Shown here in pieces: positions 17,101 through 57,265 of a stretch of DNA of 64,000 nt. This DNA comes from Mobula birostris (Eukaryota). The position numbers and the translations under genes are program-made. The stretch covers positions 176,090,647-176,154,646 of the forward strand of contig NC_092370.1 of assembly GCF_030028105.1 (NCBI RefSeq), written 5' to 3'. Positions within the stretch are counted from its first letter, which is position 1, and each line of letters opens with the position of its first letter. Below the pieces are notes generated by a model. It saw only the letters and a list, made by a program, of their open reading frames with translations, was not told the DNA's origin and searched no databases.

Positions 17101-20100
17101 ACACAAAATGTATCTGTACTCTTGCCATCCTCAAGGATTTATTTATTTAAGTGATGTGTATGCAACATGGACTCCTGATTCAGGAGCTGCATGGAAGGTT
17201 TAGATAGTAACGCAAGTGATTTGATTCCTTAATGTGGTTGGAGGGAGATCCTTACATCAGTATTTCTGTTTTCAGAATCAGCTTTATTATCACTGACCTA
17301 TGTTGTGAAAGGTGTTGTTTTGCAGCAGCGGTACAGTGTAAGACAAAAAAAGTATTAAAAGTTACAAAAATGAATAGTGCTAAAGAGAAATAATGAGGTA
17401 GTGTTCATGGACCATTCATCCCCTCAGTACTAATCAATAAGCTTCAAAACCCGATGAGTCCTTAAACATGGCCTAGTCCACCGACACAAAGCAGATCCGT
17501 AGCCTCTTGTCTGCCTTCCATGATTATCTCTTTGTTGTTCCTACCGCTGGTACCTTGCTGTTTAGTCTTTGGCATGTAGTAGGACAGCCAGATAGTCAAA
17601 CTTCCTGAAATGCAGTTCATGGTTGGAACATTGGAAAGTTTTTGGCAAGAACAGGCCATTTGGCCCACCAAAGCTTGCCAAATTCCTAATCACATAGTGT
17701 GTTGAAATAACTATTGAGTTTAGATTTGAAAGTCTCTAGGGTGCTACTCTCAATTACACAACTAGGTTGCTTGTTCCTTGTGTTAGTCATCCTTGATAGT
17801 AAAGCAGCAGTAGTCGAGTGTTGGGTATTCTGATGCTGCAGGTTATTTGCTGCTCGTAGTTGGGTAGAGATTTCTTCAATCTAGCCTGACTGAGGTCCCC
17901 AGGAAGGATGTGAAAAGCTCAGGGCAAGCCGTTCCTTGTTTCACGGCCACTCAACTGAGTGCTGGCTCGACATCTGCCTTTGGCAGAATGTAAACTGTAG
18001 TCAGTGCACAGCAGAGAACTCCCTCGGTAAGAAGAATGGTTGGCACTTAATCATTAGCTGATCCAGATTGAGACAATATGAGTGAGACAAAACCAATATT
18101 TCCAAGTACCATGTTGAGTTTATCATGAAGCAGATGTTTCTGCCTCTATGTTTTCCTGACGGGGCTGTCCAGTCAATCCAGTGGATTAATTACTCCCTGG
18201 GTTTAAGTGTGTGTGTGTGTTGGGGGGGAAGGGGGGAAGTCATTGAGTCATGTCTCAGTGAAATAGAGAATGCAGCAATCCCACATTTCCCTCTGACGTA
18301 GCAATCTTAGGTCCTTCATTTTTCCCTCCAGGGATTGTACACTTGGTAGCCAGTTTATTAAGTATACCTGTTTATTAATGCAAATATCTATTAGCCAATC
18401 ATGTGGCAGCAACTGAATGCATAAAAGCATGCAGACATAGTCATAGTCATACTTTATTGATCCCGGGGGAAATTGGTTAATGGAGACATGGTCAAGTAGT
18501 TCAGTTGTTGTTCAGGCCAGATATCACAATGGGGGGAAAAATATAATCCAAGTGACTTTGACCATGGAATAATTGTTGGTGCCAGACAGGGTAGTTTGAG
18601 TATCTCAGAAACTGCTGATCTCCTGGGATTTCATAGGCAACAGTCTAGAGTTTAGAGGATGGTATGAAAAACCAAAAAAAATCCAGTGAGTAGCAGTTCA
18701 GTGGTTGAAAATGCCTTGTTAATGAGAGGTCCAAGGAGAATGGCCAAACTGATTCAAGGTGACAGTAACTCAAATAACCTTGTGCTACAATGGTGGAGTG
18801 CAGAAGAGCACTTCAGAATGAAAACACATCGAACCTTGAAGAAGATGGGCTACATCAGCAGAAACCTGCAGGAGGAATGTAATCAAGTGGCCACCGAGTT
18901 TATGTTGCCCAGGACGATGCTAGGGATTGGTGGCCATGTTCCCTGTCACTTCAGTCTGGCCTTAAGTTTCACCCTCCTCCCCCACTCCCAGTAACCACAC
19001 TTCCTGGAACAATCATGGCTATTCCATGGTCTCCTGGTGCCATACCTGCATCCCTGAGATCCTTCAGCATCATCCGATTTTAAAATCACTAATGCATTTA
19101 GACGATACAGAAGTGTTTCTTAAAAGGTAACTGTGGGCTGGGAATTGCAGTAACAGTTCAGATGTATATCCAGCAACACACATAAAAGTTGCTGGTGAGC
19201 ACAGCAGGCCAGGCAGCATCTCTAGGAAGAGGTACAGTCAACGTTTTGGGGCGAGACCCTTCGTCAGGACTAACTGAAGGAAGAGCTAGTAAGAGATTTG
19301 AAAGTGGGGGGGGGGGGAGATCCAAAATGATAGGAGATGACAGGAGGGGGAGGGATGGAGCTAAGAGCTGGAAAGTTGATTGGCAAAAGGGATTTGAAAG
19401 GATCATGGGACAGGAGGCCTACGGAGAAAGAAAAGGGGGAGGGGGAATCCCAGAGGATGGGCAAGGGGTATAGTGAGAGGGACAGAGGGAGAAAAAATAT
19501 GTATTATAATAATAATAAATAAATAAATAAATAAATAAATAACAGATGGGGTACGATGGGGAGGTGGGATATTAATGGACGTTAGAGAAGTCAATGTTCA
19601 TGCCATCAGGTTGGAGGTTACCCAGACAGAATACAAGGTGTTGTTCCTCCAACCTAAGTGTGGCTTCGTCTTGACAGTAGAGGAGGCCGTGGATAGACAT
19701 ATCAGAATGGGAATTTTTTTTTTGTGAATTGCCTGCAAAACATCGCCATCTACTGCCACTGCCATTTTTTTTGCCACCATTGAGTACATTTCCCATTGAG
19801 AATCACAGAAGCCTTGGTTCCACACCACCAGGTTCATGAGCAGTTATTACCTTACAAACATCAGGCTCCTGAACCAGCGTGGATAACATCATGCACCATT
19901 ACTCTGAACTGATTCTATGACCAAGGGACTCGCTTTCAAGGACTCATTACAAGTCTTGTTCGCAGTATAAACACAAAAAGATTCTGCAGATGTTGGAAAT
20001 CTAGAGCAACACACACAAAATGCTGGAGGAACTCCCCAGATCAGGCAGCATCCATGAAGAGGAATAGAGTCGATCCCTTGGCCAGAAATGTCAGCTCTTT

Positions 20101-24989: not shown

Positions 24990-25183
24990 CTAAAGCCGTA
25001 CGGTCTGTTCACTTGTTGTATCAGGAGCTGGTATTTCATCACATTTGCCATGAGATCCTTCTCGTGCCTGTCCCAAAGAAAAGGAAATAATATCCACGGC
25101 GATGTTTACTGTGGAATTAAGTTCTTTATCTGTAGTTGCAAGATGAGGATTGACTTCCACCAGATCCATTGCAGACAGCATTC
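24990..25183 (-). CDS. arg2: arg2 exon 8 (stop)
   Basis: atgcag|[14 protein letters not shown]...QTVRL*. Confidence 0.95.
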
Positions 25184-28100
25184 CTGCATGAGAAACAATG
25201 GATACAAGTGTCACATTTCAATGCAAGTGAACAACTGCAAGACTTTCACTAATCAACCAGTTGCTTCTACACATTGTTTCGTACCAGAGTTGTACACTTC
25301 TTCAGCAATATACATTCCTTCCCTGTAAGTTAGTCCTCCAATCACTGGAGTACCAGTAGCAGGAGCTAAAGATGGATCAATGGCATCGACATCAAAACTC
25401 AGGTGCAATGGTCTTTTCTTTCTATAAAGCAACATACAAGGTTAGATTCAGATTTATGTTTATCCATTAAATAAATCAAACTTTACTTTGAGATTTCAAA
25501 AGTCTAATTTACAAGCTGATCTATGAAGCAGGTTATTGCAGCCCATTATCTAAAATGGAGATTAAAATTTTGCTGATCGTAACTGATACATCTCCCTACC
25601 ACCCCCCCCATGAGAAAGTGGCTACATGAAGTTATTTTTATGACCCAAAATAAGGATACAAATAATCATTGATCATTGCTGGACAGTCAGTGTGAGCAAT
25701 ATTGTTCCGTTTAGTAGTTATTTAACTTACTTTCCAACTAGATAATCAAGTGTTTTTTCCATTACTTTCTGTATTCCAAGTTGATCCACTTCTTTCATTG
25801 AGAAGTACTGGATGCCAAAATTTTTCAGGATGTAGCTGATAGTAAGAAAAGCAATCATTACAATTTTTTCTTATTTGTTTGGGGTCAGTTTCAGGATCCA
25901 AGTAGTTCCATGTGAAGTTTATTGAATCAAGGACATTAAGATTTAAATACAATTTTGGGATTTCTAAATAGTGAAAGCTCAGAGGCCATAATTTCATATA
26001 TAATCATTACTTCTAAGTAATTATTTCCCAGCATTTACATCGATTATCACAGACAAATCATTTTTAGTTGCCACTGAGTACTTTCGCATTTGCATTTGCA
26101 TATCATGCAGCACTTTGAAATATAGTGTATACCATCATTTTTAGAAAATATTTATGGTGTAAATATTTAACAGTTAAACAAGCACATGCATCATTTAATC
26201 TGAATATCCACCACTTATATTGCAGTAACTATACGTGGCTTTTTTTGACCTCAAGCCTTGACCAATTAAGAGGAATTGTGGAACATCGTTCTCAAATTTA
26301 GCTGTCTGCAAAAATTTTTTTACAAGTCATGCCTGCAACCTAAAGGCACGGAAGTCAGGATCTTAACAAATGGACCACACAACAAAACAAATCTCAGTAT
26401 AGACAGTATCAAAACATCATCAACCAATGCCTTCCTCAAGCTTTCTCCAGAAACTTTCCCAATGGATCTGAACTAATCTACAGGACAAATGTTCAACCAA
26501 CTTCTCCTCCTCTCCAGAACCAATGTTGTTGAACTTCAGTCAGAGTTGCAGAACACTGAGGCAGAGCTTCAAATCCACTCATGTATACAGTGCAGGCCTT
26601 ACAAATAACATCTACAAAATATGGAGTAATTTAGCCCTGCTGCATGATACTGCTCAGCAATAAAGGCCTATGCCGAGAACCTGGAAAATGCAGACCACCA
26701 CCCCTAACTCAGGAACCACATCCCAATGAAGGCAATCATCATCACCTTCAAACTGCCAGCACAGATTTTTGCTGACTGAGGAAAGCACTGAAAGACCAAG
26801 ACCTCAAAGCTTATGGTAGTAGTAATCCTTGCTATCTTGTAAACCAGAGTCATGGACTACTTACAGCAAGAACCTAGAGATCCAAGAGAGTTACCATTAT
26901 CATCTCCACAACCTCTAGCAATGTATTTGGAGGATGAAGTAATCAATGTAAACATCCTCCTCTCAGTCATCAATTCAAAACACTGAGGCCCTAAGTGCAC
27001 AGACTGTACAGCCAACATTATTTTTATGTTGAACACAAGACTTTTGAAACACAGACTTATTAGAGCTCTATCTGGATACTATAAGAAACAAATAGAGGAC
27101 AGTATCAAAATCTGGAGAACATATCTGGACCAAGTTTTGGGATTCTATGGAACATGGCCAACCAAAATGAAAAAGGAGCATTCCAATTGGCATTCAGAAC
27201 TTTTAAGCCCATTCACTGGGAACAAACAAGTTCAGAATAATGAGGAAAGCAAAATTGCCTGATCAACCCACCAACCCCTCCATTAAGCATTCCTTGTTCC
27301 ACCTGTGGCAAAAAATTAGTGGGTCCCATATTGGCTTCATCACAGAAATGGAGTGGAAGCAAGTATACCTCTAAAGCAAGGGAGTACCTAAAAGGTTGAC
27401 AACAAACAGGACTGAATAAGGAATTTAAATAAATTTAAAATGAATGCAAGTGTCAAACTGTAATGCAATAAATGTTTGCATACAAATTTAACAGTATTTT
27501 TGCATCAAATTTACTTTCAGTTTAGCTTCACTGATTACAAATGGAGACGTTTGCCAGGTGTCTAAGGTGGTATTAATGTACTACAATTTTCACTTAAGTC
27601 AATTCTAGAAACCATTCTTACTATTCAGCAGGATCAACATCCCGTACTCCAATGTAAACCAAGTCCTTTGCTGATATACAAGGAGTGACCCAAGAAAATC
27701 CAGGGAGTGATGGGATCTAAAAGAAAAGCACAATTTGTAAAGTAAAAGGTATCTACTGGTAAAATATAGCTGCAGAAAACAATCTATTCCTAAGATGGAC
27801 AAATACATCATAATCCTACTAAACAAAATGGTTCATAACTGGTTTAATTCAAATATAGTTTTACCTTGTTCTGCAGCTCTTTTATAAGGAACGACACTGG
27901 CTGTCCATGCATATTTCCAGATGTGGTTGTAAGAGGTGTGTTTAGATCACAATGTGCGTCCACCCAAATGACACACAAATCTGGACGCTGTTGGGCATGC
28001 CCATGGACTGAACCAATTCCTAAACTGGTTAGGATAAGAAATTTTTAAAAATTACCAATCCACGTGCAATAGTTAAGTGTGTGTAAAAGTCAGACTATTA

Positions 28101-31100
28101 AAACTTAACTGCATGCTATCGACCTACCTATGATCTCCTCCAAGCATAACACTTATGTGACCATCCCTAACTGCCTGACTGACTGCTTCAGTTAATGACT
28201 GGTTTGCTAAACCCACTGTTCTTGGGTGGTGGATATTCTTATATGGTGTATCATTTGGTACAGTTGTGAAATTCAGGTTTCCATAGTCATGAAGGTTCCA
28301 ACCTGAAAATGAACATAGACTGATTAGAAATGGTACCATATCAAAACTCAAGTTCAAGTGTAAAGTATACTTATCTATGTAAACAGAATACAACTCTTGA
28401 GAATCATCCTCCCACAGGCAGCCGCTAAATAAAACCACCACCAACTGCAGATTAATTGCTAGATCAGTAACATTCCAAGTGTCCACAAGAGTCATGTAGG
28501 TGTCTGGAGAATGTTTTTCTGATGAAGGAGATTTGCCTTTTGTACTTGGTAACCTGTTAAGCTATTGAGTTGTTTTGTGTGGAAATCTACAACACAGATT
28601 TCAAACTACACCCATTAATTAGCTTTTTAGACTGCATGTTTCCCCCCAAAAGGGTTATCTGGAACAAGCCAATATAGTTTCAGAACTAAAGGGTTCCCCA
28701 ATTAATCTGTAAATCTTTGGGGTTCTTCATCCCCCAAATGGTTGAATATATTCAAGGCAGAGACTGATGGCTATTTAAACTATAATGGAGTGAAAGGAGT
28801 TGGGGAGACCAAGAAAGTGGTGTTGATGGTAAGAACGAATTAGTCATCATCTTACATAATAGGCTGATTGGCCACTTCCTGCTTCTAATTAATATAAACC
28901 TATTTACCTAGCCCCTTCCCAATGCCCATGGCAATGGGAGTTATTAATTTGACAAAGGTTCACAACACTGGTCATAAAGCTTGTGAGCTTCTTTCTGCTT
29001 CTTAAGTTATGTTGATCATTAAACCCGATGTTGGCAAATATTCTGCAACAACCCATGTTTACCACGTAGTGGTCAATGGAAAATTCTGACTCAAGTGAAA
29101 TCTTTAAAAGACAAACTGGACACTTAGAATTACATTTCATTCAGAGTTCATTCTAATATTTTTTAGAAGAGTTTTCATTATTATGAAATTTGGGGACAGT
29201 ATGTTGAATATTTGGCACTTATTGATTATTCACTGTCTGTATAATAATTGACAGATGGGTTACTATTTTAGTTGTGCAGAGCTGAGAACACCATGTTCAT
29301 GAGGAACAAGTTCCTAACACCAAATTACTGTTCAGCCAAAATGTTATTTTAATAATAACAACTATTGGGGATTCTGTGATGTTGGAATTTCACTCATTCA
29401 GGGATTTGAGGGAATCTGTCGTATTTCTAACTTACTTTCTGGATGAGAAAAGCTCTAGGAGGTTAGTAGTTATTCTGGGTTGTTGATAGAGGACTCAAGC
29501 TGCAAGATGCAGTGCTGTGCAAAAGTCTTATAGGCACTTAGCTTGGGTGCCCAAGACTTTTGCACAGTACTGTAGTAATTTTATGTATTGTACAATACTA
29601 CTGTTTTTTTAAAAAAAAACAAATTTCATGACACGTGAGTGATGATAAACCAGATTCTGATATGGGTCTCTACTGTGGACCGAGAGTGGGAAGGGGCAGG
29701 CAGAAGGGATGGAGTGGGAACCACCAGAGAGACATTCTGTAATGATCAATAAACCAATTGTTTGGAATCAAATAACATTGTCTGGTGTCTCAGGGCTGGG
29801 TGTGTCTGCACCCTCCCCCCAAGCACTCCTTCTCCAGTACTGCACGATTCTGCAGAAGGCAATTACAATAGTCTTCGTCTTCAAGGCCATTTGTGAAGAT
29901 GAGTTGACTGGGCTGGTTGTGCCTTTGTAATGCCTGGTACCAAAGCAAATAAAATTTACTCCTCCGAGCTTTATTACTGTATCCTTTTGATGCCAGTGGT
30001 GATCAACTAGACCTGGGCATTTTGGGGCAGGCGAGCATACTCTGGAATCCCAAACCAATTAGGGACAGCAGATTTTCTATTTTGAAGGCATTAGTGGATA
30101 CATTTTTTTTTAATGGGCCATTCTCCCTTTTTAAATAGTCTTTTTTTAAAACTCTGGATTTAATTAATGTGATAATCCTCACAATTGCTACGGTGGGATT
30201 GGTATATCAGCAGATTAGCCCAATACTAATCCAGTACCATAACTGCAGTATCTCAACACCAGCAATGGAATCTTTGTTCAATCATTTGGAATGCAAAGAG
30301 CCTATTCCCCAAAAGAAAAAAGAAGAAATAATGAAGCTGGGGGTGAGGGAAGGGAGGTAAAATAACTTTTAAAAAAAGCAAATTGTTCCAACTGTATTGT
30401 AACAGACACCAAGTTAAACAAAAAGACCAGGTTTCCGAATACGAGTCATGCGCACATTGGTAATGTGTTAAGGAATATAGGTAAACATGGGCCTGAAGTG
30501 ATTTATGCATGCACTGCATTGGACATTTCACATTTGTATTACAAAAATCATCTCTGGGACAGATTGTACTCAAACTAGGATCTAAAGCAAATGAGCGAAG
30601 AGACGCATGAAAACTTACTCACATTACACAACAATAAACCAAAGGATGTAATCTCAGAGAAAATGGTAAAATGCAAACAATAAAATAAATCAGGCAGACT
30701 ACAGTGTGCAGCTACACCAAGTAAGTTTTATTATTTTCTACCTCTTCCCTTCATTAACAAAAAGGCTCAGCAGAGGATGTGCTTCTTGCGGCTGTTGGTA
30801 AAGTTCCATCTTCCCCAGAACATACTGGTGCAATTCTACACTGCAATCATAGACAGCATCCACATAATCAGCCATTACTGTCTAGTTTGGTGCAGCATCC
30901 TCTCATAATACCAAAACTACAGTAAACTGTCAGAACAGCTTAGAATGTCATTGGCTACAGTATACCATCATGGCAGGACTCGTATGTATCGGGACAAAGA
31001 AGCCAGCAGAAAAAAATAGAGCAGACACTACTGACCCAGCAAGCTGCCTTTTCCAAAAGCTCCATTCTGGCAAGTGCTAGAGGGCCATTAAAGAAAAAAT

Positions 31101-34100
31101 TTACCAACTTAAAAGTTTCTTCCCCCCGGCCGTTAATCTGATTAACTATTCTAGTTAGCCACCACCCCCCCCCATTACCTCATTCACTAAACCACTTTTT
31201 ATAATGCTGTTTGCATTGCAAGTACACTTATGCACATTTTATTCCATACCCACACTTTTTAAAAAATATAATTCTTTGTTTAAATTGTTGAATGTTTTTG
31301 TTGTATATTGTGCCACCACAGTACACCAAATTCCCAATGCATGTAAATGTATATGGTGAAGTTGATCCTTGATTTCTTTAAAATGACACATTTCGCCACA
31401 TACACGTGGTAAATAAAGCCGGTCTCCAAGTAGGCATTGTAGTCAATGAGGATAATTTAGAAATGGAAAATAATTTATGATTCTGGAAGTTGTTACAGGA
31501 ATCACTTATGAAATATCAAAACATAATGTTGAAAATAAAACAGCCATGGCAAATAAAAAATGGTTTTAGTGTGGAATTTTTAAACCTGCATTGAGATCAA
31601 GGAATGAATTTCCAGGGTGCTCAGGATAGGTTTTTCCGCAACACTAGGTGCTAGATTCAGTAAGGAGATGGTCCATACTCGATTTAATATGCAACAAGCC
31701 AGATTTACTTTGACTGTATTTGTAATCATAATTTTAAAAGCTCAATGGTGTCAAAATTGAAGAAGGTTTGAAGGTAAAGCCTAAATGCATGCAATTAAGA
31801 CAAAACTGTTAATGATAAACACAACAAAAGCACAGTAAATTAATGGGGGCTGTTTAAAACAATGAATATGGAAAAGAAACATTTTATAAAAAGAACACGA
31901 ATTACATTTGTCCAAAGCACCACAAACAGCTTTGAACACTGACAAACCTATGTATCCTAGTGGACTAGAAAACAGAAAAAGCAAAGGTCCTCAAGATGTA
32001 ATTACACTTGTTTAATTTATAAACAGCTAAAACCAGGTTTGTGCCTTAATGTTATACTATCTTTCCTCACTGTTTAACTTTGGATTTCTAGGCACTAAAT
32101 TTCATTTGTATATTTAGCCAGCTGACGCCCTTGGCAATGTATTGTTATTCTCTTCAACGTTTTAGTCATCTGGAATTTGAATATTACCTTGCATGCTCAT
32201 GTTCAACTTGTGAACTTATTTACAAATAACAAAATTTTAAGTAAATTTCTTCTTGCTCCTAGCCCTGGGGACTATTGCCCATCATCCTCCAATATAAAAA
32301 TAAATGCTTTCCCCAACTCTTTGCATTCTTTATTCACACTATTTCTCTTCAAGCTGTCACTACTTTGATCAAAAGGTATGGTTCAAGAAGTGAATTTAAA
32401 AATACAGTTGTTCCTTTACATTAGTTTGTGAAACAATTTCTTAAAATACAGCGAGATGATATATATGCATTCCAGGAGTATGGTAGGCTCTTGTTTACAG
32501 CAATCTCCAATGAACTTCCTTTGGGAACTCAGAATATCTCTCATTCAAGACAAGTAACTGATTCATGTTAAGTTTCACCACAATTTCACTGTATCAGATC
32601 TTAAGTAATTTTCACTCCCATCTATTTTCTTCTGAGATTTTGGCAGCATCCTCTATTGGTCAAGACTGATACAAAATATTTCAGGCATTCTGCCTGATTG
32701 CATTGCTTACTTTAGTCCCTAGAACCATTCAACATCCCATCAACTACTCTCATCACCCACTTATTTGCCCACCCAAAAGTTATCCAGAACCATATAGTTC
32801 CCAAGCCAACAAACAAAAGATGTTGATTGTAGCACTGCAGCCACAATTGTAATCTTTTAAAATTCACTTCTTGAACTATTCCTTTTGATCAAAATTGTTC
32901 TCATCTGCATGGTTTTGTAGAGGTCAGCCATGCAGAATAAGCCTGTTGCCAATTACTTGGAGCCATACCTGAAGTAGGGAAATGTTTACTGATATTGCTA
33001 AAAAAATTGAAGCTCAGAAGGTAAATTATTAACACATTACAGAAGGTGGTTGAACTATAGCAACCAATGCAGATATTGGACATTTACTGACGATGGTACA
33101 ATATTAATGTCCGGTAGGAATCTGTGTTGGGGCTTAAACTATCCATTGAAGGTGGAATAGACTGTTAATTATGCATTCAAGCTTACTATGCAGCCAACAA
33201 AAAAATGTGCATCAATGCAAGGTGTGTGGATAGATGCACCAAAAACAGTAACTTAAACATATGAGCTAAACTCTCCAAAGGATTTCAATGCATTGAAGTG
33301 ATCAGAGAATTAGACGTCTCATAACTGAGATCAATTCTGGGAGTTACAACTTGGGAAGCATATTGGATTTGAGGGAATACAGTGTAGAAATATCAAAATA
33401 ACTGGACCCCCCCCCCCACCTTTTTACTGGGATATTCAGCACTATGGAGTGATCTAATCAAAGAAACCAAAGAACAAATCAGGCAAACGGGGGGGAAAAA
33501 AACTCTCCCTGGTCAATGAATCAAGGCCGCGACAGTCTAAGAGTCAGAAATGGGCATCTCAGCAGCAGTCAGAAAATGCGCTTACAAAGTATATGGTAGT
33601 TTGAACTCTTCTGCAGACAAAAAGATATGCTGCATCAACCATTAATTTTAGTCCAAATTTGATCAATTGTGAACCAAAATGTATTAAGTTTGGAGAAAGA
33701 TACATATACAGGTTTCCCCCGCCATCCGAAGGTACAGCGTTCCTATGAAACGGTTTGTAAGCTGGAATGTCGTAAAGTGAAGAAGCAATTACCATTTATA
33801 TGGGAAAAATTTGTGAGCATTCGCAGACCCAAAAAAATAACCTACCAAATCATGCCAAGTATCACATAAAACCTAAAATAACAGTAACATATAGTAAAAG
33901 CAGGAATGATATGATAAATACACAGTCTATATAAAGTAGAAATACTTTTCTACAAACATTGCTGCACTGTTCTCCGTAGCGAAAACCTCGCACAAGCGCT
34001 CTCGGCAGAAACACTCTCTCCAGTAACCTTTAAGCAATGAAGCTGCCAAATCATACCAAATAACACAAAAATACATAGCCTATATAAAGTAGAAATAATG

Positions 34101-37100
34101 TATGTACAGTTTAGTATCACTTACCGGAATCGGGAAGACAGCGAGCACACGGATGATGGTGTGTTAGGCTGAGTCGTCTGAGGTTGGGGTGGTGCAGTGG
34201 CCCCCACCCTCCAGGCCGCGGACCGATACCAATCCACGAAGCATGCAGTGGTGCAGCAGTAGCGGGGACGCACCCAACGCATCTTTAATTACAGAAAAGC
34301 CGAAATAAACAAGCTAATTAATTAGGTGCCGCCCAGCACGTAAATGTCGGCCCAGATCAGAGCTGACGCAATCGGCAATTGCCTCTGATCTGGGCCGACA
34401 TTTACCTGCCGGGCGGCACCTAATTAATTAGTTTATTTTGGCTTTTTTCTTAAAGATGTGTTGGGTGTGTCACAGCTACCACTGCATTCTCCACAGTAGT
34501 GTATCGGTCCACTTCTATGTCTTCTATGTCTGCCTGCCTTGATATCGAAGATCAAGGTTCGTTGTCTGCTGTGGAAGGCTTGAAAAACGACAGTATGCCT
34601 GACTGCTTAGCCTCACACATTTTTCTATCATACAGTTCTTTGTAAGCACTCAAACCATCTTGCAAATATGCCCTAAACCAACGTACCCTTTCAAAATTAA
34701 AGTTGTACTTTTCTGCAATCATTGCAGCGAAAATCTCATGCAGTTGCTTCACGTTCAGTTCCTGGACAACTTCACTTTCGGTCCATTCGGTTTCAATTGT
34801 TATCCTTTCCTCTTCGAATTGCATCAGCTCTTCATCCATCAGTTCTTGGTCATGGGCTGCCAAAACCTCTTCAACATCATCTTCGTCAACTTCCACAAGC
34901 CAAACTCACTTTGTCCTTACTTTGTTCACCACGGTCGAAACGCTTATTATGTCTAGTTTTTCACTAAGCGTAACACCCTTACGAGCTCTTTTAGGTTTTT
35001 CCGATACCTTAGAACTCACCTTGCTAACGGCTGCTCACAGGCACATGTTTAAGCAATGTCGGCTAGAATGCAGTTCCAGGGGAGCAGCTCAGCTGCTTGG
35101 GGCGCGCGCTCCCTTTTAGCGAGTGCTGCCTTTTTTCGTAACAGTGAAAACACCTTCTGTTAGCGAAAACAGGTAACTAACGTAAGTCAACACACATCAA
35201 AGTTGCTGGTGAACACAGCAGGCCAGGCAGCATCTCTAGGAAGAGGTACAGTTGACGTTTCAGGCCGAGACCCTTTGTTAGGACTAACTGAAGAAAGAGC
35301 TAGTAAGAGATTTAAAAGGGGGAGGGGGAGATCCAAAATGATAGGAGAAGACAGGAGGGGGCAGGATGGAGCCAATAGCTGGACAGGTGATTGGCAAAAT
35401 GGGTATGAGAGGATCATGGGACAGGAGGCCCAGGGAGAAGGAAAAGGAGGGGGGGGGGGGAAGGGGGGAAAAGCCCACAGGATGGGCAAGGGGTATAGTC
35501 AGAGGGACAGAGGGAGAAAAAGGAGATTGAGAGAAAGAAGGTGTGTATATAAATAACGGATGGGGTACGAGAGGGAGGTGGGGCATTAGCGGAAGTTAGA
35601 GAAGTCAATGTTCATGCCATCAGGTTGGAGGCTACCCAGACGGAATATAAGGTGTTGTTCCTCCAACCTGAGTGTGGCTTCATCTTTACAGTAGAGGAGG
35701 CCGTGGATAGACATGTCAGAATGGGAATGGGATGTGGAATTAAAATGTGTGGCCACTGGGAGATCCTGCTTTCTCTAGTGGACAGAGCGTAGGTGTTCAG
35801 CAAAATGCTCTCCCAGTCTGCGTCGGGTCTCGCCAATATATAGAAGGCCATATCGGGAGCACCGGACACAGTATATCACCCCAGTCGACTCACAGGTGAA
35901 ATTTCGCCTCACCTGGAAGGACTGTCTGGGGCCTTGAATGATGGTAAGGGAGGAAGTGTAAGGGCATGTGTAGCACTTGTTCTGCTTACAAGGATAAGTG
36001 CCAGGAGGGAGATCAGTGGGGAGGGATGGGGGTGGGGGACAAATGGACAAGGGAGACACGTAGGGAGCGATCCTTGCGGAAAGCGGGGGGGGGGGCAGGG
36101 AAAGATGTGTTTAGTGGTGGGATCCCGTTGGAGGTGGCGGAAGTTACAGAGAATAATATGTTGGACACGGAGGCTGGTGGGGTGGTAGGTGAGGACCAGG
36201 GGAACCCTATTTCTAGTGGGGTGGCGGGAGGATGGAGTGAGAGCAGATGTGCGTGAAATGGGGGAGATGCGTTTGAGAGCAGAGTTGATGGTGGAGGAAG
36301 GGCAGCTCCTTTCTTTAAAAAAGGAGGACCTCTCCCTTGTCCTGGAATGAAAAGCCTCATCCTGAGAGCAGATGCGGCGGAGACGGAGGAATTGCGAAAA
36401 GGGGATGGCATTTTTGCAAGAGACATGGTGAGAAGAGGAATAGTCCAGATAGCTGTGAGAGTCAGTACGCTTATAGTAGACATCTGTAGATAAGCTGTCT
36501 CCAGAGATAGAGACAGAAAGATCTAGAAAGGGGAGGGAGGTGTCGCAAATGGACCAGGTAAACTTGAGGGCAGGGTGAAAGTTGGAGGCAAAGTTAATAA
36601 AGTCAATGAGGATCTCCCAGTGGCCACACATTTTAATTCCACATCCCATTCCCATTCTGACATGTCTATCCACGGCCTCCTCTACTGTAAAGATGAAACT
36701 ACACTCAGGTTGGAGGAAAACCACCTTATATTCCGTCTGGGTAGCCTCCATCCTGATGGTATGAACATTGACTTCTCTAACTTCCACTAATGCCCCACCT
36801 CCCCCTCGTACCCCATCTGTTATTTATATACACACCTTCTTTCTCTCACTCTCCTCTTCTTCCCTCTGTCCCTCTGACTATACCCCTTGCCAATCCTGTG
36901 GGCTTTTCCCCCCTTTTCCCCCCTCCCCCTTTTCCTTCTCCCTGGGCCTCCTGTCCCATGATCCTCTCATATCCCTTTTGCCAATTACCTGTCTAGCTGT
37001 TGGCCCCTCCTGTCTTCTCCTATCATTTTGGATCTCCCCCTCCCCCTTTTAAATCTCTTACTAGCTCTTTCTTCAGTTAGTCCTGACGAAGGGTCTCGGC

Positions 37101-40100
37101 CTGAAACGTCGACCGTACCTCCTCCTAGAGATGCTGCCTGGCCTGCTGTGTTCACCAGCAACTTTGATGTGTGTTGCTTGAATTTCCAGCATCTGCAGAA
37201 TTCCTCATGTTTGCGTAACTAATGTAGGTCTTTTGTCACAGCGAGGTTTCGTAAAGCGAACGTTCGAAAAGTGGGGAACACCTGTATGGAACTAAGTTAC
37301 AGGTTTATTGTAAGTGCATTCAATAGAGGACCAGGCTGAAGGGCCGAAAAATATTTACACAAAACTAGTTATTTACTAAAGTTCAACTTTAGTTTTACTG
37401 TTCAAGTTCAACTATGGAAATAATTTACAGCTTAGTGATGAAAAAATTAATTGGATGATACTCCTTGTCAATATACAAGAACTTTGAAATCTTCGTTACC
37501 TATTCTTTATCTAACACAAGGTATTTGTTTATATATTAAATTTCATTCAAAGAACATGCAGTGTAGGGAACATTTCAACAAAAAATACTGGAAATCTTTA
37601 AAAAGGATCAAGGTAGCAAAGTTCGTTAACACTTATGGTAACTAAAGTTTAATATTTCACACTGGCGACCTTTCATTAAAGCAGTTAAAGCAGATGTGTG
37701 GGACATTTGTTTTACACAGATACTGGGAGGTACCTGGAACACACTGCAGGGGTGCTGGTGGAAGCAGATATTATGGTGCCACAATGCAAACATTGTGGGA
37801 TGAAAGCTGTGGTCCTGTGCTGTATTGTTCTATGAATGCAGGGATAGAAGTGGAGGTGTGAGCAACAGCAAGTCACGTGTAGTTTGATCAAAAAGATGAA
37901 GCAACCATGAAATATTGGAAACTCTCAGCACATCTGGTAGCATTTGTAAAACGAGAAACAAAATGTTAACTCTTGGTTGTCTTTCCATGCATATGCCTAA
38001 CCTGTTCGGTAATTCCAACATTTTCTATTTTTATCATTCATTAGATTTGTAGGTGGCAGGAGAGAAAACAAAAGTGGCTGAAACTGGCAAAAAAAAAGAT
38101 GGTAAATGTTGATTTCAACATTTAGAGAAACTTTGATAGGCACATGGACGGGTGGGGCATGGAGGGTTATAGTCCAGGTGCTGGTTGGTGGGACTACGCA
38201 GATAAATAGGTGGCACAGACTAGATGGGCTGAAGGGCCTGTTTCTATGCTGTAGCGCTCCATGACTCTAAAAACAAAAAGTCAGTTTAGTAATGAGTACT
38301 TGCTCGAGTTTGCATTATTCTGTGAAACTCACAAGTACATCAGGTTTTATAGCCAGGGCTATGCACGTTAACCATGTCATTATATTAAAGGTGACAAACT
38401 GTTCTCTGAATTTGGAAATCAAATCCTAAGCTGGCAAAAGGAGATCATACTCCAAAAAGCACAGCAATGGTGACTGATCCAATAGACTGTCCCCTGAAAT
38501 AAAGTATTAGCACTTCTTCCCCACATTTCTACAGTGCAGGCTTGACTAAAGAACAGCATGTAGAACAGACAGGGGCTTCACTGCATTATGGATTTAGAAA
38601 TTTCACAAACCAGCAAACGGCATGACTACAGCACCTCCTTCCTTAATTAGTATAATTATTAACAAATGGGACATTCAAGTGTTGGATGATCAACCAGCCA
38701 CAAAAATAATTTACAATCCTTTCTGTTGCAGCCCTTGCTTCCACCAGACAATTTATTTTTCAATTAAAGAACTTCTATAAACTATTGTCAAGACCTCAAA
38801 GCGTTCACACCACTATCCACTCGAAGTATTTTCAATGTGGTCATAGCTTTAGTATGTGAAACAAGCCATCAATTTATGCACAAGGCCCTAAAGAGCTACA
38901 GTATGCGATTAGCACAAGATAATTTTAGTGATGTTGAAGGACAAAAATGGCGCAATGTTGCCTCCGTAACACAGGAGGTCAGAATGGAGCTTCTGCCAGG
39001 AGGAGGAAGTACAGCGCTCATTTCTGCGCGCGTTAGCAACCTGGATTCCGTGTTCAAATTTCCAGATCTGTAATTTCCTTAACAGAAAAGTTCACAGCCA
39101 AAACTTACAATCAAGTCACTTGTAAATTACACACTCCAGTGAATCTTATCACCTTTCCCCCTTCTTCCCAGAGTATCTTAAGATCTTGAAGCTGTAGAAT
39201 AACAAAATAAGAGCATTTGGCCCTTGACGCCCGTTTCACCGTTCATCGCAACTAACCTAGCTCACACTCTTTTACCCGAGCTATTTTGATATCCCTTTAA
39301 CATCCTCCACACTCCTCAGAGATAAGAGTTCCAAAGATTCACCACACGCTTTAAAAATCTCCATTTCCTCCTCTTATGCGGTGATGTGACCCCTGGTTTT
39401 CGGGTCCTTGGCCAACTTCTTCCCTGCATTATCCTGCCAAACCCTGCACGAATGTTATTAGTGTCAATGAGATTGTCTCTCATTCTATTAAATACTGGTG
39501 CGACAGATCCATTCTATTCAAGCTCTCCTCAGAAGGCAAACCTGCAATACCAGATATGCAAATATGGAAATAGACAAACATTTTGAACTTTATCTAAGTT
39601 AACGAATACATATTAGCAACTACAGAAAACCTAGGAACACAGATTAGCTGTTAATCAGATAAAACGTTTTGGTTGATAATGTTTCAAAGAAATCAGAAGA
39701 TAACTTTGCTGATTTGTTGCTTTAGCTGAGAGGCTACACAAGCTTTATTAAGCAACAAAATATAATATTGCAAGAAATACTCAGCGGGACAGATGGCATC
39801 CATGGAAAGAGAACAAAGTTCGGGTTTCAGATTAACCTGGCACCTGCTCATCGTCCCCCCCCCCCCCAGTGTTTCATTTCACAATTCGGCATCTGCATTA
39901 TTTCACATCTTCGCCCCCCCCCCACTCATTTCCAATTCCTGTTCAGTGTTCTTTTCTGATTGTTTGCTTCAGACCACAGTTTACAATGTTCTGGCAGCGC
40001 GGAACTTCGCCCCCTTCCTCCACATGATATTCTACACCATGTGGTGGTGGAATAGAAGACGGACAAGTAAAGCTCAGGGATTAGTCATGTACGGCTGCCG

Positions 40101-40719
40101 CTCAGTTTTAAAAACGCTAAACACAACGGAATAAAAGCCAACCACGAGGGGGTGGAAAGCAATCGATCGATATAAAAAGAGTGAATAAACCGGGTTCTTT
40201 TCCTTCGAGACCTCGCGAGAAGGAGGAAGTAACAAGTATATGTGTAGGTAAATAAAAGTCGCGAAGTGCCTGCTCCCTGACTGAGCTGCGAACCGCGCTG
40301 ATGCATACACTCCCATCCGTTAGCTGCTGCAGCAGCCCTGTACTCACCCAGAGCTTTCAAGCGATCTATCAGCCCGGCGTCCCTGATTGCCTGGGGCCCA
40401 ACCTCGACTCCTCGCCGCTTCTATAATTAAATCAATACAAATATATAAACACCAACAGGAATCATTACAAATGTTAGCTTGCATTCTGCATGCATTTGTG
40501 CAGTCGCAATAACAAAAGATGACGTTCTTAGGTGGGTCATTGCTATCACACATTCAGTCACCCCTCCCCCGTTAGATTTTGGATAAATGAAACTCTCAGT
40601 ACCTGGCCATAGGAGAATGGCGCACCGATTATACCCAGAGAATGGACCGATCGCTTCTGCTTGGGAAAAGCGCCCAGCTGTTTCCCCAAAAGGTGCACAA
40701 TTCTCAGTCGCAAAGACAT
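24990..40719 (-). CDS. arg2: Arginase-2, mitochondrial, complete 8-exon CDS (complement join 40603-40719, 40348-40420, 28128-28302, 27865-28024, 27622-27716, 25731-25835, 25285-25421, 24990-25183), 351 aa
   Basis: 1056 nt open after splicing at GT-AG sites. Motifs [58 protein letters not shown] and DLVEVNP; Arg/Lys-rich, acid-free N-terminal presequence; tail-to-tail with vti1b as in human. Confidence 0.96.
25285..25421 (-). CDS. arg2: arg2 exon 7
   Basis: ttatag|[45 protein letters not shown]|gtacga. Confidence 0.96.
25731..25835 (-). CDS. arg2: arg2 exon 6
   Basis: tatcag|[34 protein letters not shown]|gtaagt. Confidence 0.95.
26640..27370 (+). mobile_element. Old RTE-like LINE remnant
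   Basis: Degenerate resemblance only; no intact ORF. Confidence 0.35.
27622..27716 (-). CDS. arg2: arg2 exon 5
   Basis: ttttag|[31 protein letters not shown]|gtaaga. Confidence 0.95.
27865..28024 (-). CDS. arg2: arg2 exon 4
   Basis: aaccag|[53 protein letters not shown]|gtaaaa. Confidence 0.95.
28128..28302 (-). CDS. arg2: arg2 exon 3
   Basis: tttcag|[11 protein letters not shown]...SVMLGGDH|gtaggt. Confidence 0.94.
29510..29572. mobile_element. 63-bp Tc1-type mini element (two TIRs only)
   Basis: CAGTGCTGTGCAAAAGTCTT...AAGACTTTTGCACAGTACTG|TA. Confidence 0.7.
30755..31370 (+). mobile_element. Rex1/Babar 3' fragment
   Basis: [11 protein letters not shown]..., FYTAIIDSI remnants. Confidence 0.65.
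35189..37214. mobile_element. Penelope-like (Neptune-type) retroelement, 5'-truncated, with inverted 3'/pLTR duplication
   Basis: RT thumb HPALKFT...LPFLDL...[11 protein letters not shown]...[14 protein letters not shown]; [14 protein letters not shown]...[17 protein letters not shown]; 16-bp TSD gtaactaa(c/t)gta(a/g)gtc. Confidence 0.92.
37078..37115 (+). ncRNA. Minimal type I hammerhead ribozyme motif in a PLE pLTR
   Basis: GTC-CTGACGA-AGGGTCTCGGCCT-GAAA-CGTC-GAC. Confidence 0.7.
40348..40420 (-). CDS. arg2: arg2 exon 2
   Basis: ttatag|[24 protein letters not shown]|gtgagt. Confidence 0.94.
40603..40719 (-). CDS. arg2: arg2 exon 1 (mitochondrial targeting peptide)
   Basis: [39 protein letters not shown]|gtactg. 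Confidence 0.93.
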
Positions 40720-47475: not shown

Positions 47476-50400
47476 CAAGTCAAGTCAAGTCAAATTTATT
47501 TATATAAGACCATAAGACAAAGGAGCAGAAGTTGGCCATTCGGCCCATCGAGTCTGCTCCGCCATTTTATCATGAGTTTATACATTCCCCCAATTAGTCC
47601 CACTCCCCCACCTTCTCACCATAACCTTTGATACCCTGGCTACTCAGATACCTATCAATCTCTGCCTTAAATACACCCAATGACTTGACCTCCACTGCCG
47701 CCCGTGACAACAAATTCCATAGATTCTCCACCCTCTGGTTAAAAAAATTTCTTCACATCTCTGTTCTGAACGGGCGCCCTTCAATCCTTAAATCATGCTC
47801 TCTCGTACTAGACTCCCCCGCCATGGGAAACAACTTTGCCACATCCACTCTGTCCATGCCTTTCAACATTCGAAATGTTTCTATGAGGTCCCCCCTCATT
47901 CTTCTAAACTCCAAGTAATACAGTCCAAGAGCGGTCAAATGTTCCTCATATGTTAACCCTCTCATTCCTGGAATCATTCTAGTGAATCTTCTCTGAACCC
48001 TCTCCAACATCAGCACATCCTTTCTTAAATAAGGAACCCAAAACTGCCCACAGTACTCCAAGTGAGATCTTACCAGTGCCTTATAGAGCCTCAACATCAC
48101 ATCCCTGCTCCTATACTCTATTCCCCTAGAAATGAATGCCAACAATGCATTCGCCTTCTTCACCACCAACTCAACCTGGAGGTTAACTTTAACGGTATCC
48201 TGCACAAGGACTCCCAATTGCTGTTGCATCTCAGAATTTTGAATTCTCTCCCCATTTAAATAATAGTCTGCCTGTTTATTTATTCTGCCAAAGTGCATAA
48301 CCATGCACTTTCCAACATTGTATTTCATTTGCCACTTTGCCCATTCTCCCAATCTATCCAAGTCTCTCTGCAGACTCTCTGTTTCCTTAGCACTACCGGC
48401 CCCTCCACCTATCTTCGTATCATCAGCAAACTTAGCCACAAAGCCATCTATTCCATAATCCAAATCGTTGATGTACAAAGTAAAAAGAAGTGGCCCCAAC
48501 ACGGACCCCTGTGGAACACCACTGGTAACCGGCAACCAACCAGAATGGGATCCCTTTATTCCCACTCTCTGTTTCCTGCCAATCAGCCAACGCTCATCTA
48601 CGTATGTAACTTTCCCGTAATTCCATCGGCTCTTATCTTGTTAAACAGCCTCATGTGTGGCACCTTGTCAAAGGCCTTCTGAAAATCCAAATATACAACA
48701 TCCACTGCATCTTCTGAAAATCCAAATATACAACATCCATAGCACATTTAAAAACAACCCATGTTGACCGAAGTGCTGTACAGATCAGAGCAGATAGCTA
48801 AAATCACAAATACAAGAAACACAGACATAACCAACAAGGCAAACAGCTTATAGGCACAGAAGAAACAGCAAAAAGGCCCTGGCACAAGCCAAAAATCAGC
48901 CACATCAGGAGGATTCAAAAGTTAGTGAATAAAGGTAAGTTTTGAGCCTGGATTTAAAAGAGACAATGGAGGGGGCAGATCTGATAGGGAGGGGAATGCT
49001 GTTCCACAGTCTAGGGGCTACAACAGCAAAGGCGCCGTCACCCCTGAGCTTAAGTTTAGATCGCGGGACAGCCAGGAACCCCAAGTCAGCCTACCTGAGG
49101 GACCTGGAAGTAGAATAAAGGGTTAGAAGGTCTGTGATATAAGCGGGGGGGGGGGGGAGCCCATTTAGGGCTTTATAAGCAAACAGGAGAATCTTAAAAT
49201 TAATTCTGAACTGTACTGACAGCCAGTGGAGGGAGGCCAGGATAGGAGTAATATGGTCCCTCTTCCGCGCACCTGTCAGGGGCCTGACTGCGGCATTCTG
49301 GACCAGTTGCAGACGGGACAGGAACGACTGACTAATCCCAGTGTACGGGGAGTTGGAGTAGTCCAAGCGGGAGGATATAAGGGCATGGATGACTTTCTCA
49401 AGATCTTTGAAGGAGACAAACTGCTTGATTTTGGCAATAGTACAAAGCTGGAAAAAACTGGCTTTTACTACTGTATTAACTTGCTTGTCAAACTTAAAGG
49501 TGGAATCAAATATCACACAAAGGAATTTAACATGGGGTTTGACAAGGGTGGACAGGTTACCAAGACTGTTGGTAATCACTTTGATGGAGTCAGGGGGGCC
49601 AAGTAGGACAACTTCAGACTTGCCTTCATTCAGCTGTAGGAAGATTTGTGCCATCCAACACTTTATGCCCTCAAGGCAGTTCATGAGGCTGACTAGATTT
49701 GACTGGTCGTTTGGTTTCAGGGGGAGATGAAGCTGTGTGTTGTCAGCATAACAATGGAAAGAAATGTCGTATTTTTGAACGATTTGACCGAGGGGAAGCA
49801 TGTATATAGAGAAAAGAATGGGACCTAGGATGGAACCTTGTGGGACCCCGCAGGAGAGACTAGCTGGGCGAGAAGAGAACTTGCCTATGTTGACGGAGAA
49901 ACTTCTATTTTTGAGGTAGGATATAAACCAGTTCAAGGCAGTGCTATCAACACCAACCCTGTACTGGAGATGGTCTATTAAGATGGCATGATCCACAGTA
50001 TTGAATGCTGTGCTGAGGTCAAGAAGAATTAGGATGGCAGAGTCACCTGAGTCGGTAGAGAGGAGCAGGTCATTGTACACTTTCAGCAGGGCAGACTCTG
50101 TGCTATGATAAGCTTTAAAACCTGACTGAAATCTTTCCAAGATGTTGTTTTGGTGTAGGTAGGGCAGCAATTGACTAAGAATAACCTTTTCGAGAACCTT
50201 TGACAGGAATGGAAGTTTAGAAATAGGTCTGTAGTTACTAGGTAAGGTAGGGTCTAAGTTGGGTTTTGTCAGGAGGGGCTGGACCACGGCATGCTTGAAA
50301 CAGGTTGGAACGGTACAGTGGCCAGGGAGCTGTTGATAATAGAGAGGATGCTGGGACAGGCTATGTCAAAGACATCCTTCGGGAGGGCAGTGGGGACAAC

Positions 50401-52400
50401 ATCAAGGGGGCAGGTTGCAGGTTTCATGGTGGAAATAATTTTTGTAAGGGAGGGTAGCGTGGTGGGTTGGAAACAGTCCAGTTTAGATGAACAAACCAGT
50501 GAAACAGCTAGGTCACAGGTGGGGGGGGGGGGTGAAATATTCATTCTAATGTCCTCAACTTTGCTAATGAAGAATTTTAAAAATTCTTTGCACTTAGCAG
50601 GGGACACATCTAAAGTAATACAGGAGGGACAAATGACAGAATTTATGGTACTGAATAAGACCTTGGGATTATGAGAGTTGTTGGAAGTTAGGTCAGAAAA
50701 CTATTTTGCTCTCGCAGCTTTAACTGCTTCCTGATACTTGTGAAGACTGTTTCTCAAAATTTCAAAAGAAATTTGAAGCTTGTCACACTTCCACTTTCAT
50801 TCAGATATTCTGCACTCCCTCCTCAGGGCTCTGGTGGTGTCATTAAGCCAAGGCAAACCTTTAGGCTTAAACATTTTCAATTTAAGTGGAGCAACAGTAT
50901 TCAGAATAGAAGAGCAGGTGGTATTAAATAAGGAAGGAAGCTCCCCAGTGCTGAGATGGGAAGGGAAGCCTCAATGGTGCAAGTGTTGGGAGCAGCTATG
51001 ACAGCCCCAGAGAACTTACTGGCAGTTGAAGAATTAATACAGTGAGAATAACATACAGGAAGATGAGATTTAATAGAGGAAAAAGGCAGAGATACATTGA
51101 ACATAACAGCGCTATGATCCGACAGACAAGCGTCAATTATTACCGCATTGCAGATAGGGAAACCAGATGATAAGACTAGGTCGGGTGTATGGCCTAGCAT
51201 GTGAGTGGGTCTGGTGATAAGCAGAGCAAGATTAAAAGACTCAACCAGATACATAAAATCACTTACGAGAGGCTTAGTGGGACAGCAAACATGAATATTA
51301 AAATCGCCAAAAATCAGAACTTGATCAAAGTTGAGCGTAGTGTTTGAGAGGAAGTCCAAAAATTGAGTAATAAAATCTTTATGTACTTTTGGTGGATGAT
51401 ACACAAGAGCAATTAAGAGGGGATTGACCAGGCCCACTTTAATTAATTGCACCTCAAAGTTAGGGAAATAATCAGAGTTCAGTAGACGGCAATTAAAATG
51501 ATTATTAAACACAGCAGCTAGACCCCTCCGCGTCCAGAGGGTCTAGGCGTGCTAAAAAAGTTACAGTCATCTGGACAGACTTTAACAAGTGGAGCAAGCT
51601 CACTGGTACTTAGCCAGGTTTCCGTCACCAGGAAGAAACCCAATCCCTGGGTGGTGAAAAAGTCGTTGAGAATACAAGTCTTATTGGATAAGGACCTCGC
51701 GTTGATCTGAATCAGTTTGACTGGGATAGCAGCACAATCCAGCAATGGCTCACATGCCAGAGGGCGGAGGTTCCGGAAGACTACTCCACTGCGCTGAATG
51801 AAGAGCTGAATGTGTAAGCCTTTCCCTGCCAGTACATAACCTCTCCAACAGCAAGCCTCATGTAGTGCCTCCTTGCTGGCAACACACGTAAATCAAACTC
51901 CTTTCGGACTCAGGCTGAACTACAGAGGATGGGGAGGAGGTCTGGCCCCTGCACACATAGCGCACAGGCCCACTGGCGCGTGGACACACCCTGGTACTCG
52001 TGAACCAGATCCCCAGCTATGGGTAAATAGCCTCACTGTCTTGTGGGCAGCCTCAGGAGAGACGATGGCTATGGGAGTGAACCCAGACAGCAAATCCGGA
52101 GTGGAGCCCCTAAGGAGGCTGGACGTCATTGAACATCCTTCCGGCAGCCAAGCTGGTGCCAAACGTATTGCTTCATGAACTTTCATTTGGACTACATGGT
52201 GAGGCCAAGAGGGGGATCTTGACGACCGGGCATGTCAGGATCTCCATACCTTCCGCCCAGGCTTGAGATGATGATGATCACCCATTGTCCTCCAAGACAG
52301 GCGGATGCCAACCAACCAACCAACTATGTGAATAGTGTTACATAAATAGGCTGTTGTCACTGTTTTGGGGTGTATACCACAATTCCAACATCTATACACC
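47476..52400 (-). mobile_element. L2-clade LINE, near full length with frameshifts (5' boundary approximate); 3' tail split by a CR1
   Basis: APE INARSLSNK, VTETWL, GDFNIH, SDH; RT NYRPISKLPFLSKVLEK, QSGFKAYHSTESALLKV, GVPQGSILGP, YADNTQ, SRLDY; (CTTGA)n tail at 47476-47493. Confidence 0.9.
47504..48739 (-). mobile_element. CR1 LINE 3' part
   Basis: VPQGSVLGP, KFADDTK, RSHLEYC; (TCTTATGG)n tail. Confidence 0.92.
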
Positions 52401-55215: not shown

Positions 55216-55656
55216 GGCTCTATTTACCCTTCCTTTCCATCTTTTCCCTCTCATAATCAAGTCATTCTTTCACTTTAATTATAAGGCTTTACCTGATTTG
55301 ACATTGAATTCACCCTCTGTATATTTCCTAATCTTTCAAGCTGATTAGTTAAGAAGATACCCTTTTTGTGCTACTTCAGCTACTATTATCTCACCTATTC
55401 TAGTTCTGCAGAGGTGCAGAGGTGTTAGTCCAGATACCTACTCAGTTGGGTAGTGCCTGTCTCACCCCAGCACATAGTGTGGATCCAGTATAGGATTCAT
55501 CAGTCACTTCAGTACCCATGGAACTAAGATGGAACAAGACATCTTTGATCATGAGGGAGTGTCCAAGATAAAAGAAATGCCCTGCCATAGCAGATTCTAG
55601 CCCATTTCAGAGTCCAGATTATCAGAAAGAATATTCTAGTTAATGGAACACTCACA

Positions 55657-56896: not shown

Positions 56897-57265
56897 GTAG
56901 AGTCTTAGAAAAGTACAGCACAGAAACAGGCCCTTTGGCCCATCTACTTCATGCCAGACCGGTTGAACTGCCTGCTTCCATCAACTTGCACTGGGACCTT
57001 AGACCTCCATACCACAACCATCCATGTACGTATCCAAACTTCTCTTAAATGTGGAAATCGAGCTCGCGTGCATCACTTGCTCTGGCAGCTCATTCCACAC
57101 TCTCTCAACCCTCTGAGTGAAGAAGTTTCCCCTCGTGTTCCCCTTAAAATTTTCACCTTTCACCCTTAATCTACAACTTTTACTTGTAGTTCCATCCAAA
57201 AACTAGAGATCATGGGTTAAGGGTGAAACGTGAAATATTTAAGGGGAACATGAGGGGAACTTCAG
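56897..57265. mobile_element. CR1 3' fragment with a short inverted duplication
   Basis: RGNFFTQRV on the - strand; 57122-57170 mirrors 57213-57263. Confidence 0.7.

Follow-up and report, generated by a model that had tools for sequence, protein, structure and literature searches.

A broken head-to-head Penelope-like insertion with a minimal hammerhead motif in an arginase intron of Mobula birostris, and a proposed copying cycle for its family

Minimal type I hammerhead motifs have been described in the pseudo-long terminal repeats (pLTRs) of Penelope-like elements (PLEs), and an extra base between positions 9 and 10.1 is a hallmark of these motifs (Cervera and De la Pena 2014, PMC4209133; here and below, published work is cited from part of each text). 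The published motifs show no cleavage as monomers and low cleavage as dimers (PMC4209133). In PAc, a Poseidon element of Anolis (Frangieh et al. 2024, PMC11167929), reverse transcription is primed at two internal sites, both strands are extended, uncut RNA is the main substrate, and the hammerhead cuts only in the presence of protein. Here we describe a PLE inserted at 35189-37214 of a 64,000-nucleotide stretch of Mobula birostris DNA (contig NC_092370.1; hereafter the window). Taken as a whole, the account that we consider very probable is that of a broken head-to-head insertion of an endonuclease-positive (EN+) PLE with a known minimal hammerhead, whose copies are inert and whose family follows the copying cycle proposed below. 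Direct observations underlie it, namely the anatomy of the insertion, the copy numbers, the equal decay of cores and flanks, and the pile-up of 5' ends at the front edge of the hammerhead.

The insertion is enclosed by a 16-bp target-site duplication (left copy 35173-35188, right copy 37215-37230; 14 of 16 positions match). Its first arm, at 35189-36608 on the minus strand, is a 5'-truncated, tailless PLE end encoding the reverse transcriptase (RT) thumb, a CX4CxxC linker and a GIY-YIG endonuclease (EN). Read on the minus strand from 36608 to 35189, the end of the open reading frame (ORF) is followed by a pyrimidine-rich 3' untranslated region (UTR) of about 300 nt within the pLTR, the hammerhead and a downstream hairpin. 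The ORF end (35589-36607, minus strand) is disrupted by one frameshift and one in-frame stop, and it shares 94-95% identity with many copies in the genome. The second arm, at 36609-37214 on the plus strand, is about 93% identical to the first and comprises the EN end, the 3' UTR, the hammerhead, the downstream hairpin and a tail; it is an inverted, 5'-truncated copy of the last 600 nt of the element that runs 38 nt further, and these 38 nt form the tail (37177-37214, plus strand), present on the plus arm only. No editing signature is evident among the 27 substitutions between the two arms. The locus is thus a 5'-truncated, broken head-to-head PLE insertion of an already described form (PMC8557442, PMC3846280).

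Relatives of the encoded protein are abundant and complete elsewhere in the genome. The first pass of a genome protein search with the ORF end returned 73,282 candidates, and the 150 scored show 92-95% identity (self match excluded). Pfam assigns no family to the RT-thumb piece from the window and matches its GIY-YIG piece only weakly. By comparison, full-length relatives contain RVT_1, a C-terminal GIY-YIG domain, a DKG motif and the CX4CxxC linker between RT and EN, the last shared with the window copy; one (L031) has an open frame of 1014 residues with RVT_1 (E 1.6e-5) and C-terminal GIY-YIG (E 0.0025), both under Pfam's cut-offs. Another copy (L032) is a partial tandem in which two same-strand hammerheads lie about 3.5 kb apart, one in each pLTR, and the ORF start is located past the tail. 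In the element, the hammerhead is found about 300 nt beyond the ORF stop. Among named relatives, the best is a protein of a bamboo shark with 71% identity, and the relatives share the RVT_1 and GIY-YIG domains. These features resemble those of EN+ PLEs, Neptune and Nematis (Craig et al. 2021, PMC8557442; Arkhipova et al. 2013, PMC3846280), which likewise combine an RT with a C-terminal GIY-YIG, a CX2-5CxxC linker and DKG, and which also share the partial tandem pLTR, the adjacent inverted 5'-truncated copy, the 30-40-bp tail at one end and the target duplication. The element is likely an EN+ PLE of the Neptune clade, a placement suggested by the CX2-5CxxC linker, which Nematis shares. Two traits found here are not stated for EN+ PLEs in the parts of these papers considered: a near-absolute rule of one tail per head-to-head pair and a hot spot of 5' ends at the first base of the hammerhead.

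An earlier note on this DNA had placed two intact hammerhead cores in the window, and both are present on the plus strand, at 37080-37113 and 56312-56345, with C17 at 37110 and 56342. In order, the segments of the first core are GTC, CTGACGA, A, GGGT, CTCG, GCCT, GAAA, CG, T, C and GAC; the second is identical except for the loop TCCG and the segment GCCC. Both cores measure 34 nt from G2.3 to C1.3 and carry AA after CTGANG. The surrounding motifs extend over 37078-37115 (plus strand, subfamily A; G10.1.U11.1, an A.C mismatch at 2.4-1.4, predicted cut after 37110) and 56310-56347 (plus strand, subfamily B), the latter within a second head-to-head insertion of subfamily B at about 55647-56437 with a 13-bp duplication. 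In the minus arm of this second insertion, the hammerhead region is missing and the terminal bases are kept.

The motif agrees closely with the published minimal hammerheads (PMC4209133): a type I core without loop 3, a palindromic 15.2-16.2, the extra base between 9 and 10.1, a 5-bp helix I, a location in the pLTR, and mostly single dispersed copies with some close opposite-strand pairs. The palindrome ACGT occurs in both focal copies, in line with the earlier assignment to PLE pLTR minimal type I hammerheads with a loop-less palindromic stem III, and CG occupies 15.2-16.2 in 25 of 29 subfamily A copies. The core (CUGANGA, GAAA, U16.1 and H17) is complete in both focal copies and prevails in subfamilies A, B and C, whose majority lines differ at N7, loop 2 and the stem ends. 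The extra A had been regarded as special to the 56.3-kb copy; in fact both cores have it, as do 100 of 104 aligned copies. In an old subfamily, three classified copies (L054:6383, L062:7030 and L076:3223) have CTGATGC-A, with C for A9, and C stands in the A9 column in 6 of the 104. Pairing is possible in helix I, typically 5 bp long, and in helix II, with the A.C mismatch at 2.4-1.4 in both focal copies. At 10.1-11.1, the 56.3-kb core has G-C, as do 51 of 103 copies, and the 37-kb core has G.U, as do 42 of 103. Recurrent CpG decay was considered as the source of T at 11.1 and rejected for subfamily A, because U11.1 is the majority state in this young subfamily (21/29) and four other CpGs are kept in 19-25 of the 29 copies. 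The 4-bp helix II with a tetraloop, the G10.1.U11.1 pair in the youngest subfamily and the little variety within the genome are distinct from what is described in PMC4209133.

The family is very large. The pattern CTGANGA-N11-15-GAAACGTC, searched genome-wide with the reversed pattern as control, gives 74,230 matches against 147 in the control, and a tight 34-mer gives 12,888 against 0, so the motif is not a product of chance. In a sample of 62 stretches of 10 kb, evenly spaced, all taken from large contigs and including one that consists of N only, a profile search detects 125 end modules, 105 spanning the hammerhead, and 19 strict cores in 610 kb, and element matches cover about 5% of this sample. 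The extrapolated total is 0.57-0.84 million hammerhead-covering copies in the genome; it is perhaps somewhat high, because the strict count of the sample scales to 75,000-195,000, above the direct 74,230. An Rfam scan of the window returned no hammerhead among 10 matches with E up to 5. The expectation of a very large family, which Rfam does not recognise in the window, is therefore borne out, and what is new about it is its copy number alone: about 4,000 motifs in coelacanth and about 9,000 in Xenopus are already on record (PMC4209133), obtained with descriptors that differ from ours, and the kind of motif is known. Minimal hammerheads of cartilaginous fish are absent from the parts of the PMC4209133 text considered and from one of its supplement files, although its supplementary figures and alignments may list some. 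Our literature search, which lay outside subscription papers, Repbase and Dfam, found no paper devoted to this shark or ray family or to the front-edge hot spot.

Copies of the motif are degraded to the same extent as their surroundings. In 93 aligned random hammerhead-covering copies, the core is kept in 30, and the core, palindrome and both stems in 18. Non-CpG mismatches amount to 5/261 in core columns and 4/232 in downstream columns for subfamily A, and to 58/564 and 57/521, respectively, for older copies. The core is not spared relative to the downstream columns, so the dispersed copies decay neutrally; selection on dispersed cores was considered and is not seen. The term ribozyme family, used in the earlier note, is accordingly too strong. 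Between master lineages, by comparison, the hammerhead is the best-kept segment of the element in an alignment of one copy each of subfamilies A and B, with 34/38 identical positions as against 194/328 (59%) in the 3' UTR and 292/370 (79%) in the ORF end.

Folding predictions are consistent with inert copies. All four copies folded adopt, as predicted monomers, a rod in which core GACG (G5-G8) pairs with the cut-site CGUC (P 0.90-1.00) and which is 4-7 kcal/mol lower in energy than the hammerhead fold. Two copies folded as a double hammerhead are predicted to be 15-24 kcal/mol less stable than an inactive duplex; these energies come from a nearest-neighbour model that ignores tertiary contacts. 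The monomer is thus predicted to misfold into an inactive rod, which fits the published absence of monomer cleavage and weak dimer cleavage (PMC4209133) as well as the protein-dependent Anolis ribozyme (PMC11167929). The copies in the window are likely inert passengers.

The 5' ends of insertions provide a separate view of the family. Starts were counted as copies preceded by six non-consensus bases, a filter with a pass rate of about 0.18 (assumed as 0.75 to the sixth). By this count, 551 copies start at A2.4 and 403 at G2.3, as compared with 54 at a control position 6 nt upstream of G2.3 (9 of them with one repeated flank), and 19,922 copies are intact upstream of the front edge. About a fifth of young copies begin at the front edge, that is, at the hammerhead's first or second base; in the unbiased random sample, 5 of 26 subfamily A copies do so. 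In the same sample, 7 of 42 non-edge 5' ends fall within 3 nt of G2.3, one of them an artefact of the homology limit. Among 60 examined front-edge loci, 24 consist of a solo insert about 98 or 133 nt long; 14 of these have an 8-13 bp target duplication, and the duplication directly abuts A2.4 in three loci (L174, L175 and L193). The simplest reading of the pile-up, and a likely one, is run-off at the 5' end of the RNA. The templates of these copies would have been uncut, because the whole hammerhead is still present in them. The sequence YYAGTCC lies at the front edge and is presumably an initiator-like site. Four assembled contig sets aligned to L032 have loose ends at A2.4/G2.3 that agree with the DNA hot spot; such ends may equally mark the homology limit of other subfamilies, and contigs cannot show ends, strand or level. 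RT stalling at structure was considered as a cause and is disfavoured, since a stall would be expected on the 3' side of stem I.

Head-to-head pairs carry exactly one tailed arm in 77 of 79 cases (loci picked for short arms, at least two counted from both sides). This pattern fits priming of both target strands from two internal sites, by analogy with PAc. Fold-back self-priming of the short inverted pairs is disfavoured, as the tail may be on either arm and a copy made by folding back cannot outrun its template arm; the pairs with 11-nt spacing (L011-L013) were also considered as a separate miniature inverted-repeat transposable element, which was rejected because their spacers differ. In the proposed cycle, a pLTR promoter would start transcription at the A/G of (T/C)AGTCC, which also serves as the 5' strand of stem I. 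Both target strands would be nicked, about 12-16 bp apart, by the protein of the element, and downstream of the hammerhead reverse transcription would be primed at two internal sites separated by 38 nt. The resulting pair of complementary DNAs (cDNAs) would extend 5'-ward, often off the 5' end of the RNA, and would be joined by microhomology or filler into head-to-head pairs with one tailed arm. The template RNA would usually be uncut. The ribozyme would probably matter only to master elements, as a weak cutter, and cutting would need either a second copy, through the ACGU palindrome in a partial-tandem transcript, or the element's protein. Such a cycle resembles that of PAc in its two internal priming sites flanking the tail, the extension of both strands, the mainly uncut template and a weak, protein-assisted hammerhead; it differs in that the PAc ORF begins inside the hammerhead (PMC11167929), whereas here it begins past the tail in L032. 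We tentatively suggest, as a possibility only, that insertion ends form a germ-line record of the PLE cycle, with an RNA start at the first base of the hammerhead, two-site priming and less than 1% of starts at the scissile bond.

Several points weigh against this account. The transcription start is deduced from DNA ends only, PAc is a Poseidon element of another clade (PMC11167929), and Arkhipova et al. 2013 (PMC3846280) takes head-to-head junctions as products of self-priming. The clade assignment is built on the linker motif. A promoter or protein-binding role, rather than catalysis, could explain why the 38 nt are conserved across subfamilies. In addition, covariation does not back the stems: among 10 window copies the score of 0.163 is equalled or exceeded by 88 of 500 shuffles, and 104 aligned copies contain 8 double changes over 9 stem pairs, mostly in CpG-prone columns, both sets having low power because they consist of closely related dead insertions of one lineage. 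The stem covariation that the earlier note expected of a true family is not seen in these sets from this genome. Finally, starts at G1.1, the base that follows the cut bond, number 238 among 72,436 anchors, as compared with 50 at +1 and 97 at +4.

Since these starts exceed the neighbouring controls, some templates may be cut. Hammerheads would then cut in vivo often enough for a minority of insertions to be copied from the 3' cleavage product, starting at G1.1, which we regard as a serious alternative but a rather doubtful one. The excess persists, about 3-fold, when microhomology joints and internal indels are excluded: roughly 10 of the 25 G1.1 loci survive this filter (about 95 starts), against 15-18 of 25 at +1 (30-36 starts), and in one locus (L135) both arms start at G1.1 with a 5-nt filler between them. 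However, 14 of the 25 G1.1 loci are joints with at least 3 nt of microhomology, 13 of them through a 4-nt stem I match to an arm ending at A2.4; one more is an internal deletion, and only two are solo inserts, neither with a duplication. The partner of A2.4 arms is the non-cut stem II site in 8 of 24 cases and the cut site in 4 of 24. The residual rate, about 0.13%, does not exceed that of the upstream control (54 as against some 20,000), there are just two neighbouring control positions, a single base is shared with the partner arm in 5 of the 10 loci left, and ends at the cut bond are about 40-fold fewer than at the front edge. The cut-bond excess is therefore a hint, not evidence of cleavage. 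In a recurring joint seen in L116, L123, L129 and L136, the core between two GAC repeats is missing beside an inverted arm, and this joint likely arises by slippage across the hairpin.

The front-edge AG|TCC could instead be a splice acceptor or a processing site rather than a transcription start, which we consider improbable. A pyrimidine tract and YAG precede the motif in subfamilies A, B and C, and the intron of Drosophila virilis Penelope ends at helix I (PMC4209133), with transcription beginning upstream of that intron. By contrast, a simple pattern finds no donor-like site in the 3' UTR of the one subfamily A copy searched, and no GT donor is joined to AG among the joints listed for the four contig sets, beyond which lie 126 further joints. 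The sequence ahead of the front edge also varies from copy to copy, and where the duplication abuts A2.4, there is no room for a first exon. Transcription initiation at the front edge is the reading that we prefer.

The insertion lies in a host gene, and this bears on a third possibility, that the dispersed copies form a large active family of host ribozymes cutting host pre-mRNAs. What we take to be arginase motifs occur on the minus strand at 40626, 40411, 28141, 27960, 25399 and 25160, in a gene (window 25100-40700, minus strand) whose closest solved structure is arginase-2. Placed from these motifs, the element sits within an intron that spans 40.3 to 28.3 kb, a length of about 12 kb. Its intact core (37080-37113) is antisense to arginase, whereas the sense twin (35284-35251) is broken by three G>A changes at G5, G8 and G1.1; this contrast is a single case, unable to demonstrate selection. 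The 570-nt inverted arms would, by prediction, give a long RNA hairpin in the intron. The intron location, the 74,230 intact-core matches and the 18 of 93 random copies with complete core, palindrome and stems speak for host ribozymes, but we judge such a family very unlikely: cores decay like their flanks, the predicted monomer misfolds and the double hammerhead is predicted to be less stable than an inactive duplex, published minimal hammerheads lack monomer cleavage and cleave poorly as dimers (PMC4209133), the arginase intron has its intact core on the antisense strand and a broken one in sense, and head-to-head partners lie on opposite strands, so that no sense dimer arises within one transcript. 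The locus at 35189-37214 is likely ordinary dead transposon DNA, inert as far as can be judged from its sequence.

That the short copies are a separate non-autonomous family of short interspersed elements or retrozymes, as the many solo 98/133-nt inserts with duplications and the origin of animal retrozymes from PLE pLTRs (bioRxiv 10.64898/2026.07.22.740005) might suggest, is hardly credible, because these copies are 91-98% identical to the autonomous subfamily and grade into long 5'-truncated copies, their fillers and inversion joints vary by locus, and the window match lists, examined without a dedicated tandem-repeat scan, contain no tandem hammerhead arrays. Animal non-LTR retrozymes, which are reported from one chondrichthyan, do share a type I hammerhead from PLE pLTRs with the present family; they differ in forming tandem arrays with a hammerhead in each unit, whereas the copies here are dispersed, solo or head-to-head (bioRxiv 10.64898/2026.07.22.740005).

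The profile search finds 21 end-module matches in the window, and all core bases are retained in only 2 of 11 scored copies. The seven decayed homologues listed earlier were all recovered, at 6700-6733 and 14483-14516 (both minus strand, older subfamily), 15544-15577 (plus), 19237-19270 (minus, subfamily A, G12 and C17 changed), 35251-35284 (minus, the sense twin in the minus arm), 58041-58074 (plus) and 60165-60198 (plus). An eighth, absent from the earlier list, lies at 57959-57992 (minus), head-to-head with the copy at 58041. The window also contains a 56-nt inverted-repeat element at 34307-34438, and in L071 a short PLE copy has a sequence resembling it in its flank (near 7250-7345). A long near-perfect hairpin at 57117-57267 has weak miRNA-family scores, far below gathering thresholds, and is probably a small inverted-repeat transposon. 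Fragments of long interspersed elements with RVT_1 occupy 1455-2009, 9508-10344, 47756-51542 and 58483-59208, and an endonuclease domain lies among such fragments at 50.9-51.5 kb. Elsewhere, a 473-residue open frame with tandem C2H2 zinc-finger repeats (L039:531-1952, minus strand) adjoins a PLE copy.

Whether and why PLE hammerheads cut in vivo is an open question (PMC4209133, PMC11167929, PMC8557442). A hammerhead-like motif can outnumber the counts reported for other vertebrates in the literature surveyed and yet escape Rfam, and with tens of thousands of young copies, insertion ends can be tallied at single-base resolution, so that the question becomes computationally testable. If the proposed record is true, starts at the scissile bond would be in vivo evidence of cutting by a PLE minimal hammerhead, of a kind absent from the literature surveyed.

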